This document shows, piece by piece, positions 7,222 to 9,085 of a stretch of 18,266 nucleotides of DNA (within the stretch, counting starts at the first letter, position 1; the number at the start of each line of letters is the position of its first letter). Position numbers and translations under genes: made by a program. Origin of the DNA: a virus (Duplodnaviria > Heunggongvirae > Uroviricota > Caudoviricetes). The stretch is from the IMG/VR virus record IMGVR_UViG_2698536651_000007; one strand, written 5' to 3'. Under the pieces are notes generated by a model. It worked only from the letters and a program-made list of their open reading frames with translations, did no database searches and was not told where the DNA came from.

Positions 7222-8271
7222 TTACGCCAGTACGCCAATTGTCAGCGCGCGATCGATAAAACGAAATATCAGCTCCAGTTGGGAGCCATACTTATCTTCA
7301 AATGCCACTGTATCCGTATGCAGCTCGTTGTGATGCTTTCTGCACAAAGGCAACACAAAGAGATCATGTGCTTTTGTTCCCATTCCGCCCTGCCCGTGAC
7401 CAATCAGATGATGCGGATCGTCGGCTGGCATACCGCAGCAAGCACACGGCTGTGTCTTAACCCAACGTGTGTATTTCTCCTTAACCCAGCGGCGACGTTT
7501 AGGCAGCTTCATGAAAGATTCCGGAGACTCTGGATCAACGGTGATGCTTACCACCGTCTTTTCCTGTGGTGATTTTTGTTGCTGGTGGGCGTAAGGCAAC
7601 GGTGCAAGATTTTTTGTGCGTTGTTTCAATATGCTGGTGGCGGTCTGCTCTCCCGGTACGATGTCGCTTTCGCGGTACACCGAGCAGATTTTTTCCGCTG
7701 GTAATCCCAGCGAACGACGCGATACAGCCTCAGGTAGTGCATCCACCACCTGATTGCAGACCGCCCACCAGGATAATTCAGCCAAAGATAATTCCCGCTC
7801 CTGCGTACCGCTTATTGCGTGACGGATGACGTCAATCACCCATGCTGTCAGATTTTGTTGAGCAAGCAGCTCCAGTGATTCCGATGTCTGGTCACGCAGT
7901 TGGTTGTCGCAGTGCCAGCACAACACCATTGCGCCGGTACCATAACGGTGAATGACTGTTTCAGTGTGATGGTAATCGCCATTAGGCCACTGGCAGGATG
8001 TAACATGACGTAATAGCCAGTCGGACAATGCGCCAACGCCGCCAGCAGCACGAATCACCCGTTCGTTACTAAAAAACGGCAGCAATGTTTTGTCTTCCGC
8101 CAGCGGCTGGCGAACGGCAGGAACGACTCCGGATGGCAGATTACGCATGCTTTTTGGTTCCGGTTCCACCAGCACTCGAGGATTATGAAATATCTGTATG
8201 GATTCACGGCCCGGCTTAAGGACCACCAGCCCAAGCTCAGGCACCAGAACAGGTCTAAGTAATACCCGCAC
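7222..8271 (-). CDS. ydfU: DUF968-type prophage protein (349 aa) with C-terminal HNH-like Cys/His motif; GTG start
   Basis: GGAGGT SD immediately upstream of the GTG at 8271. C-terminus CACCGMPADDPHHLIGHG…CRKHHNELH. Same position as ydfU in K-12 Qin (recall). Confidence 0.75.
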   Translation of the reverse strand: MRVLLRPVLVPELGLVVLKPGRESIQIFHNPRVLVEPEPKSMRNLPSGVVPAVRQPLAEDKTLLPFFSNERVIRAAGGVGALSDWLLRHVTSCQWPNGDYHHTETVIHRYGTGAMVLCWHCDNQLRDQTSESLELLAQQNLTAWVIDVIRHAISGTQERELSLAELSWWAVCNQVVDALPEAVSRRSLGLPAEKICSVYRESDIVPGEQTATSILKQRTKNLAPLPYAHQQQKSPQEKTVVSITVDPESPESFMKLPKRRRWVKEKYTRWVKTQPCACCGMPADDPHHLIGHGQGGMGTKAHDLFVLPLCRKHHNELHTDTVAFEDKYGSQLELIFRFIDRALTIGVLA

Positions 8272-8272
8272 G

Positions 8273-8551
8273 TTACCTCCAGATCCGTTGCTGGAAAGTG
8301 CGGGACGCACGTGGTGGGCGTTCGGAATAAGGCAGCCTGACAGAGATTATCCAGTGCCGATAGTCGAGACTGAGAGCTTTCTTAACCTCGAACCCGCGCC
8401 TGCGGTAAGAATGAATCAGCCATTCGGCCTGTTCTGCAGTGCATGGAGGGTGCTGGAACCATTCAGACTTGAATGCGTGAGAATACCGCCCGTGCGTGCA
8501 GGCAAGAACGGGCGAATTATCAGAATTGTAATATTTTGCGTTGCGTGCCAT
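8273..8551 (-). CDS. Hypothetical 92-aa protein, translationally coupled to ydfU
   Basis: ATG at 8551 preceded by GGAGAA at 5-nt spacing. Its stop is 1 nt from the ydfU start codon and contains the ydfU SD. Confidence 0.55.
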   Translation of the reverse strand: MARNAKYYNSDNSPVLACTHGRYSHAFKSEWFQHPPCTAEQAEWLIHSYRRRGFEVKKALSLDYRHWIISVRLPYSERPPRASRTFQQRIWR

Positions 8552-8617
8552 CGGTTTTCTCCGGTGGCACGGTGTTACTCAGCGGGAGTTCAGCCCCGCG
8601 CAAGATTGTAGATGAGT

Positions 8618-8869
8618 TTATTCTCCTGAAAAAGCAGAAAAGCCAGCTTTTATTCCGATCTCTTTCAATGCCTGTAATGAAGTGACAAACTCACCTTCGC
8701 GCAAGATAAATCCGTCCGTGACCCGAGCATCCACAAAATTAATTAACGCAGCCCCATTCTTTCGCAAACACATAATGCGGTAATGACTAACAAGATTTCC
8801 ATTTTCAACGCACACAGCATAGAGGCCATCTTCACAAAAAATTTTACGCAGTTCTTCGATGTTCATCAT
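8618..8869 (-). CDS. rem: Rem-like prophage protein (83 aa)
   Basis: MMNIEELRKIFCEDGLYAVCVENGNLVSHYRIMCLRKNGAALINFVDARVTDGFILREGEFVTSLQALKEIGIKAGFSAFSGE, with GGAAGGA SD. Matches K-12 Rem by recall. Confidence 0.8.
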   Translation of the reverse strand: MMNIEELRKIFCEDGLYAVCVENGNLVSHYRIMCLRKNGAALINFVDARVTDGFILREGEFVTSLQALKEIGIKAGFSAFSGE

Positions 8870-8999
8870 CAGAATCCTTCCGGATAATTAGCTCTCCCCT
8901 TTAAGGGACCATCCCTCTTATCCCTGCGCGCTACTTAAGTATTTTTGATTCTATTCCGGCACCGTCCAGAACTTCAAACGCGTTGAAAATAAAAACAAA

Positions 9000-9017
9000 A
9001 ACCCGCCGAAGCGGGTT
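9000..9017 (-). terminator. Intrinsic terminator downstream of hokD on the minus strand (stem cccgc/gcggg, UUCG loop, then UUUUUGUUUUUAUUU)
   Basis: Hairpin aacccgc-cgaa-gcgggtt with a long T-tract on the minus strand. Confidence 0.6.
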
Positions 9018-9085
9018 AAGTGCGGGTGCGTTGAGGATGCCTGCCACATCAGAGGTGGCGAGGGATTTCTCCCCCGCCGGGTCTC

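Follow-up and report, generated by a model that had tools for sequence, protein, structure and literature searches.

The open reading frame of 92 codons that is found directly upstream of ydfU in the Qin cryptic prophage of Escherichia coli K-12 is, in our assessment, very probably an independent and functional-looking phage gene, i.e., one that belongs to the ‘nin’ (early-right) region of Qin and that would be coupled to ydfU. Here the term ‘window’ is used to describe the whole of the stretch of DNA that was analyzed, 18,266 nucleotides, which is this Qin prophage. The 92-aa gene occupies positions 8273 to 8551 of the window, on its minus strand.

The 92-aa gene begins with an ATG at 8551-8549, continues through 92 sense codons, and ends with a TAA at 8275-8273. 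In K-12 its first codon is also its sole in-frame ATG, GTG, or TTG, and an SD, GGAG, is present at 8559-8562 (minus strand), 7 nt ahead of that ATG. Downstream, likewise on the minus strand, is ydfU (7222-8271), which encodes a 349-aa member of the DUF968 His-Me finger nuclease family (Pfam DUF968, E=2.9e-76) and which starts with a GTG at 8271-8269. A single base, C 8272, separates the TAA of the 92-aa gene from this GTG. The minus-strand SD of ydfU, GGAGGT at 8275-8280, consists of the last two bases of a Trp codon, an Arg codon, and the T of the TAA. That is, the GGAGG core of this SD is codons 91-92 (TGG AGG) of the 92-aa ORF, with the spacing from SD to GTG being short, at 4 nt.

A preliminary description of this DNA had claimed essentially these elements, i.e., an ORF with a good SD and ATG that stops 1 nt ahead of the ydfU GTG, the SD of ydfU as found inside the 3' end of that ORF, and a six-frame ydfU ORF that reaches 13 codons farther upstream in another frame. 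All of these elements are present, on the minus strand. The 13-codon extension is opened by an in-frame GTG at 8308-8310, and as read from this GTG the six-frame ydfU ORF occupies the +1 frame with respect to the 92-aa ORF. On the other side of the 92-aa gene, the upstream neighbor in K-12 is by annotation rem (8618-8869, minus strand). The gap from rem to the 92-aa gene is 66 nt, given which the 92-aa gene is without coupling on its rem side.

The length of the ORF by itself proves little, as a 137-aa ORF runs antisense to it. The 92-aa protein nevertheless matches the HMM of phrog_1212, a 66-aa phage family of unknown function, with E=1.7e-35 and 121.9 bits, and with profile positions 1-66 of 66 falling on residues 27-92. 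Residues that are conserved across the family, that is, W31, C37, T38, Q41, A42, L45, Y49, and R52 along with G53, L60, D63, W67, L73, P74, R81, and W91, are all present in the window protein. Relatives as detected by tblastn are found in 57 phage records, with hosts or phages consisting of Escherichia, Salmonella (Gifsy-2, SPN3UB), Klebsiella, Cronobacter, Yersinia PY54, Edwardsiella, Erwinia, and Hafnia. The protein is conserved at 37-50% identity across phages of Salmonella, Klebsiella, Citrobacter, Yersinia, Edwardsiella, and Erwinia.

Substitution patterns point in the same direction. When 46 different nucleotide sequences of the 92-codon form are pooled for Nei-Gojobori estimation, dN/dS comes to 0.21 across the entire ORF and to 0.10 across codons 27-92, with variable sites in the latter numbering 13, 19, and 45 at codon positions 1, 2, and 3, respectively. 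Four of the five alternative frames of this same DNA give dN/dS of 1.2-1.6. The fifth, reverse frame 1, gives 0.32, a value which is read as an artefact since antisense wobble positions in this frame coincide with sense wobble positions. The ATG giving rise to 92 aa is kept, as too is gene length, in 88 E. coli-type loci, including at protein identities as low as 73%. Of these 88 loci, 64 share an identical 25 nt upstream of the ATG and 70 retain the GGAG, while internal in-frame ATG, GTG, or TTG codons are absent from 59, with a TTG at codon 73 alone found in 27 more. As judged by its molecular evolution, the 92-aa frame is a genuine small phage gene that evolves separately. Of the two possibilities that had been raised for this ORF, it thus is that of a separate gene, i.e., one with its own family, its own SD and ATG, and subject to purifying selection, which holds.

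The protein can be divided into three parts, a core, a tail, and an N-terminal extension. Codons 27-92 (8276-8473, minus strand), as delimited by phrog_1212, dN/dS, and AF2, comprise a conserved core along with a basic C-terminal tail. The core is a predicted beta-alpha-beta-beta domain (residues 28-75), with AF2 pLDDT of approximately 90 for residues 30-70. By charge calculation the protein is basic, with a pI of 10.2, and its Arg-rich C-terminal tail (residues 75-92) is more so, with a pI of 11.8. Codons 1-26 (8474-8551, minus strand) instead make up a lineage-specific N-terminal extension, which is present in Escherichia/Shigella-type members only and is missing from the 66-68-aa relatives. 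That is, the typical phrog_1212 form is approximately 66 aa in length and has a Met at what would be position 27, whereas the window protein has 92 aa and a Phe at that position. All Escherichia/Shigella-type members similarly possess Phe in place of the initiator Met of the short forms, with a start that is found about 26 codons further up.

The extension is predicted to be disordered (pLDDT<50 for residues 1-22, AF2) and its evolution is close to neutral, with a dN/dS of 0.80 and with variable sites that are spread 18/19/18 over the three codon positions. Indels within the extension are in-frame only, giving rise to 90-aa variants, and across the 88 loci never is there a stop. This is the pattern that would be expected of a translated but unconstrained leader segment, one linking a new start to the conserved domain. 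The extension probably arose through loss of the ancestral initiator Met at position 27, which is now Phe, with an upstream SD and ATG taking over initiation. Comparison of the extension with DNA found upstream of short-type genes, using blastn-short and tblastx, yielded nothing significant as to its origin.

The junction with ydfU is strongly conserved. In all of the approximately 86 E. coli-type loci for which the junction was scored, it reads TGGAGGTAA-N-GTG (TGG-AGG-TAA-N-GTG), with the spacer base N being C except in two loci, where it is T. The short-type junction is analogous, at TGGGGGTGA-NN-ATG (TGG-GGG-TGA-NN-ATG). Because TGG-AGG or TGG-GGG ends are kept in both types, the terminal Trp-Arg or Trp-Gly codons can be viewed as doubling as the SD of the next gene. 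Two of the features by which coupled pairs are recognized are present here, i.e., an upstream stop that is only a few nt away from the start of the next gene, and a downstream SD inside of the upstream coding sequence.

A hairpin is predicted as well for the minus-strand RNA of 8265-8304, one in which codons 83-89 of the small gene are the pairing partner of the ydfU SD and GTG. Its MFE is -21.1 kcal/mol, which at z=-1.4 relative to shuffles is matched by 18 of 200 shuffled sequences that fold as well. Every one of 19 E. coli-type junction variants is predicted to form the hairpin, P(paired) being 0.89-1.0 for the start codon and 0.59-0.95 for the SD. Covariation is almost nil, as the region is nearly invariant, and we count the predicted hairpin as no more than supportive of a possible occlusion of the ydfU RBS, one that translation of the upstream gene would relieve.

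The anatomy of the junction makes termination-reinitiation coupling of the 92-aa gene to ydfU likely. The small gene would be translated from its own SD and ATG. Ribosomes terminating on that gene would then melt the local hairpin and initiate anew on ydfU, since the last codons of the small gene form the SD and just 1 nt separates its TAA from the GTG. Synthesis of the YdfU nuclease would in this way be tied to translation of the small gene, and the same stop/SD/start design is kept where it is NinG or YbcO that is the downstream gene.

The family's downstream partners are DUF968, YbcO/DUF1364, or NinG. DUF968/YdfU and DUF1364/YbcO together make up His-Me finger ‘group 7’ while NinG/Rap constitutes ‘group 24’ (PMC5714182). 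NinG thus is found downstream of a 66-aa relative in Gifsy-2, and in mEp237 and phiES15 it is a 96-97-aa YbcO/DUF1364 protein along with RusA that are found downstream of the relative. PY54 has an unrelated ORF in this position. For nearly every family member, the gene that follows directly encodes a His-Me finger nuclease. In the short subfamily, members that have NinG downstream and members that have YbcO downstream are intermixed, e.g., 88% identity is shared by mEp237 gp051, with YbcO downstream, and a copy from Kluyvera that has NinG downstream. The downstream gene therefore has been exchanged repeatedly while the small gene has stayed.

Upstream neighbors vary too. Among E. coli-type loci the upstream gene is Rem, across a 66-nt gap, in 68 of 88, and is a Hok-like gene, across a gap of approximately 167 nt, in 13. 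Among short-type loci it is a DUF1367 gene, with a 5-nt gap, in 21, and Rem in none of 24. In many E. coli genomes the block of homology begins at approximately 8568, which is about 17 nt upstream of the ATG and just 5' of the SD, and it is at approximately 8568 that two upstream sequence types meet.

These observations bear upon several other ways of interpreting the locus. The ORF could be a chance or non-coding feature, with the real gene perhaps instead being the 137-aa plus-strand ORF at 8198-8611. The latter is longer, it matches phrog_2734 (E=3e-27), and the curated K-12 annotation has no gene at the position of the 92-aa ORF. The dN/dS of this plus-strand frame (reverse frame 0) is 1.43, however, versus 0.10-0.21 for the minus-strand ORF, of 89 E. 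coli-type loci 53 have stops that interrupt the frame whereas 88 loci retain an intact minus-strand ORF, and it is the minus-strand protein which is conserved across phages of six non-Escherichia genera. This alternative consequently is exceedingly improbable. The 137-aa ORF is a shadow rather than a gene, and phrog_2734 probably gathers mis-called antisense ORFs.

Just as hard to credit is a second possibility that had been raised in the preliminary description, which is that the ORF represents the N-terminal part of a formerly longer ydfU, as detached by a frameshift. The frames do overlap, and K-12 possesses a GTG 13 codons upstream of the ydfU start. In each of the 88 loci no stop interrupts the ydfU frame over the 25 codons ahead of its GTG, but this openness is uninformative since the stretch hardly varies in sequence. 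The GTG at 8310, moreover, is present as a start codon in the 29 of 86 scored loci that are K-12-like and is absent from the other 57, in which the first ydfU start is the GTG found 1 nt past the stop; it is, by this comparison, not a conserved ydfU start. The profile of phrog_96, the YdfU family, begins at residue 14 of the six-frame ORF, i.e., exactly at the annotated ydfU GTG.

Homologues tell against detachment as well. In orthologous loci the two ORFs are separate, with no uninterrupted full-length ORF being found. No full-length DUF968 fusion is present among approximately 130 close homologues of the 92-aa protein, nor among the 105 relatives (modal length 66 aa) that were recovered by exhaustive profile search of 1.84 billion cluster representatives. 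The few matches bearing a DUF968 or Q domain are chimeric and no longer than 106 aa. Fused forms of approximately 440 aa are absent from the homologues and the 92-aa sequence has no Pfam match to DUF968. The small protein's relatives, furthermore, are free-standing, as found ahead of NinG or YbcO instead of DUF968. The idea of a frameshifted remnant of an ancestral ydfU thus is refuted.

A programmed version of such frameshifting could in principle join the two ORFs into one polypeptide, that is, via a prfB-like +1 shift at AGG-UAA-C. It is indeed the +1 frame that ydfU occupies, the stop comes after an SD-like GGAGG and a rare AGG codon, and synonymous sites have diverged less in the tail (dS 0.23) than they have in the core (0.59). 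In prfB the SD-like element is found about 3 nt upstream of the P-site codon, unlike here, where it overlaps that codon. Short-type relatives have their downstream gene in the other relative frame (TGA-NN-ATG), so the direction of frameshifting is not conserved, and downstream genes possess their own start codons at a family-typical N-terminus. We give this reading next to no credence.

Only slightly less improbable is that the protein is the toxin of a TA pair with Rem. This is what is implied by GenBank ON470583.1, which labels a homologue ‘toxin to Rem’, and the locus is in a region that is rich in TA modules (relBE, hokD). In the record bearing the label, however, the upstream gene is not rem. 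Adjacency to Rem, as indicated above, is limited to a portion of the E. coli-type loci, and the 66-nt gap to rem is without coupling. Neither PADLOC nor NCBIfam toxin models matched, and the literature searched includes no paper that employs ‘toxin to Rem’ in that sense. The label is treated here as unfounded.

A different matter is whether the gene, real in active phages, is but a silent relic in the Qin of K-12, with both it and its coupling to ydfU inoperative owing to Rho-dependent termination ahead of or inside the gene. Qin is cryptic, and ydfU is among those genes that are preceded by the strongest Rho-dependent terminators (PMC9160355). In the Fig. S1 table of that work, covering rho and nusG mutants along with BCM, values for rem range from -0.52 to 0.54 and those for ydfU from 1.4 to 2.77, i.e., ydfU but not rem rises (PMC9160355). 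The RNA of the 92-aa ORF along with its leader (8280-8640) contains more C than G, and rem RNA more G than C; the C>G bias fits with a Rho loading site here. For the uninduced cryptic prophage this suggests that translation of the ORF is weak or that transcription does not pass through it. Expression in uninduced Qin is probably low or none, as Rho would limit transcription through this stretch. Against the gene being a relic, the K-12 allele is intact and is identical in many strains. We view the arguments for and against a silent relic as evenly balanced. As a statement about K-12 only, this reading is compatible with that of an independent phage gene coupled to ydfU.

Two further inquiries into expression can be mentioned. 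The TRAINSPOTTER supplements have no match to the peptide, to its coordinates, or to ydfU. Promoter-like sites at 8977-8948 (before rem) and at 8632-8605 (before the ORF) were set aside, as three such sites were found versus the 3.1 that would be expected in shuffles.

As to what the protein does, scans of the 92-aa sequence against Pfam (E<=0.1), NCBIfam, and PADLOC gave no match, a profile search of PDB sequences gave nothing below E=0.06, and Rfam has nothing inside of the ORF or of the rem-ydfU gap. The sole significant structural neighbor as found using Foldseek versus BFVD is a sequence homologue, Orf QD1 of N15. Foldseek comparison of two AF2 models with the PDB yielded best E values of 0.2-0.3, to generic small alpha/beta folds (PlyG cell-wall-binding domain, R3H, ACT-like), and these matches were not used.

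The small protein may act in the same process as do the neighboring nucleases, i.e., on phage recombination or replication intermediates, and as a nucleic-acid-binding accessory to or modulator of the nuclease. Such a role in the nuclease's recombination- or replication-intermediate step is our best guess, one that is weakly supported and held with low confidence. From a different perspective, adjacency to nucleases may merely reflect a conserved nin-region gene order among lambdoid phages. Most DUF968, NinG, and YbcO genes, e.g., lambda ninG and DLP12 ybcO, are to our knowledge not preceded by a phrog_1212 gene.

The stronger proposal, that phrog_1212 proteins are dedicated and translationally coupled partners (as DNA-binding specificity factor, chaperone, or inhibitor) of swapped nin-region His-Me finger nucleases, is rather unlikely. 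If true, it would imply a two-component recombination-nuclease module in lambdoid phages. The constant place of the family ahead of three families of His-Me finger nucleases is in any case a modest lead to function.

The gene has by no means gone unseen. In NC_000913.3 there is no feature at 1644305-1644650, that is, between ydfU (1643255-1644304) and rem (1644651-1644902). PGAP annotation of an MG1655 assembly calls the same ORF as WP_012304870.1, a 92-aa "hypothetical protein", followed directly by ydfU, and, among the matches listed, other E. coli records carry this ORF call as well. The claim of the preliminary description that the ORF is ‘unlisted’ consequently stands for the curated NC_000913.3, where the gap is empty, but not for PGAP, which has WP_012304870.1 on the same DNA. 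The gene, that is, already is known to automatic pipelines and it is the curated K-12 gene list alone that has the gap.

The 551-bp stretch around the ORF is 100% identical to MG1655 and to many other strains, and of 5426 complete E. coli genomes 4320 have a match. The exact 92-aa sequence is present on at least 1000 contigs in public protein collections, named ‘hypothetical protein’ or ‘Prophage protein’ (UniRef). A literature search for WP_012304870 found no paper, and among publications mentioning ydfU no title or abstract is concerned with the upstream ORF.

As the 92-aa gene is missing from the curated K-12 reference only, and not from automatic annotation, the finding is an ordinary one. 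Its value is mainly curatorial, with the NC_000913.3 / EcoCyc lineage being without a gene that PGAP, UniProt, and PHROGs carry. Because purifying selection is clear in thousands of E. coli prophages, the 92-aa gene deserves a locus tag as well as a y-name. The 346-bp ‘intergenic’ gap also is explained, in that the strong Rho-dependent terminator which has been placed there overlaps coding sequence, an overlap that bears on how Rho polarity at the ydfU locus is to be read.

The 92-aa gene may be compared with a number of better-known arrangements. Closest are its phrog_1212 relatives, examples of which are Gifsy-2 STM1021.1n, mEp237 gp051, PY54 ORF47, and phiES15 gp017, with N15 Orf QD1 a longer relative. 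Residues 27-92 are homologous to these (37-50% identity), with the same predicted core, a basic tail ending in W-[GR]-stop, and a nin-region location directly upstream of a nuclease gene whose RBS the stop overlaps. Unlike those relatives, the Qin or E. coli type has Phe27, the 26-residue disordered extension, and DUF968/YdfU downstream, and it follows a 66-nt non-coding spacer after rem rather than being found 5 nt behind DUF1367.

Like NinD, NinE, and NinF of lambda and P22, the 92-aa gene is a short ORF that is packed ahead of a nin-region nuclease and Q, and on the lambda map NinF directly precedes NinG. A sequence relationship with these small nin ORFs nonetheless was not found, with no Pfam family, NinF included, being matched at E<=0.1, and NinF is Cys-rich, unlike the phrog_1212 family.

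The classical translationally coupled pairs, trpE-trpD and trpB-trpA, resemble the 92-aa/ydfU junction in having a stop and start 1 nt apart, an SD within the upstream gene's last codons, and a possible occluding hairpin. The difference is that coupling in the present case is inferred and that its hairpin is statistically indistinguishable from shuffled sequence. In the lambda nin region, lastly, the Rho-dependent terminators tR2-tR4 overlap small nin ORFs. Unlike lambda, Qin has no known N-type antiterminator. The Qin locus is a zone of Rho-dependent termination (PMC9160355), and it is like the tR2-tR4 region of lambda in that this zone is located between early genes and Q, over small nin ORFs.

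Opposite the 92-aa gene, the minus-strand reading frame lying between rem and ydfU, is a 137-aa ORF (8198-8611, plus strand), which matches phrog_2734 with E=3e-27. This antisense frame displays a dN/dS of 1.43; of the 89 related loci, 53 carry stop codons that interrupt it. Because the ORF that matches it behaves in this manner, phrog_2734 looks like a family that has been assembled from mis-called shadow ORFs.

Synonymous divergence is uneven along the 92-aa gene itself. The N-terminal extension, i.e., codons 1-26 (8474-8551, minus strand), combines a high dN with a low dS (0.24 vs 0.59 in the family core), and dS is likewise low, 0.23, over the basic C-terminal tail (codons 75-92). This pattern could stem from differing recombination histories or, alternatively, could reflect constraints acting at the nucleotide level, as with a ribosome-binding site or hairpin serving ydfU.

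A very strong Rho-dependent terminator has been described in published data as lying 'upstream of ydfU', with ydfU expression up in rho and nusG mutants as well as with BCM, and that of rem unchanged (PMC9160355). The RNA of the 92-aa ORF, left unannotated in the curated K-12 reference, plus its leader (8280-8640, minus strand) is C>G-biased, a composition that would fit a rut site.

In L047 and L073, both IMG/VR contigs, the 92-aa gene is intact upstream of damaged ydfU alleles, one form being an internal deletion (216 aa, without the N-terminal domain) and the other a frameshift truncation (244 aa). Copies of the 92-aa type are themselves disrupted in E. coli ECMA0423 and ECGI0523. A short-type member, that is, one without the N-terminal extension, has lost its stop in Leclercia adecarboxylata (LR590464.1, about 2500-2860); its reading frame continues into a truncated N-terminal part of NinG, giving a 119-aa ORF, probably within a prophage that is decaying.

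Upstream, rem (8621-8869, minus strand) matches phrog_340. No Pfam family was found for Rem, and its weak match to the NCBIfam SocB toxin, which at 14.9 bits (E=0.0099) falls below the cut-off of 210, probably amounts to noise. An Rfam match to isrK (8996-9077, minus strand) is sub-threshold, reaching 25.1 bits (E=0.0039) where the gathering score is 50. It overlaps an intrinsic-terminator-like hairpin (9017-9000) that lies downstream of hokD, and next, ahead of rem, comes a promoter-like site (8977-8948).
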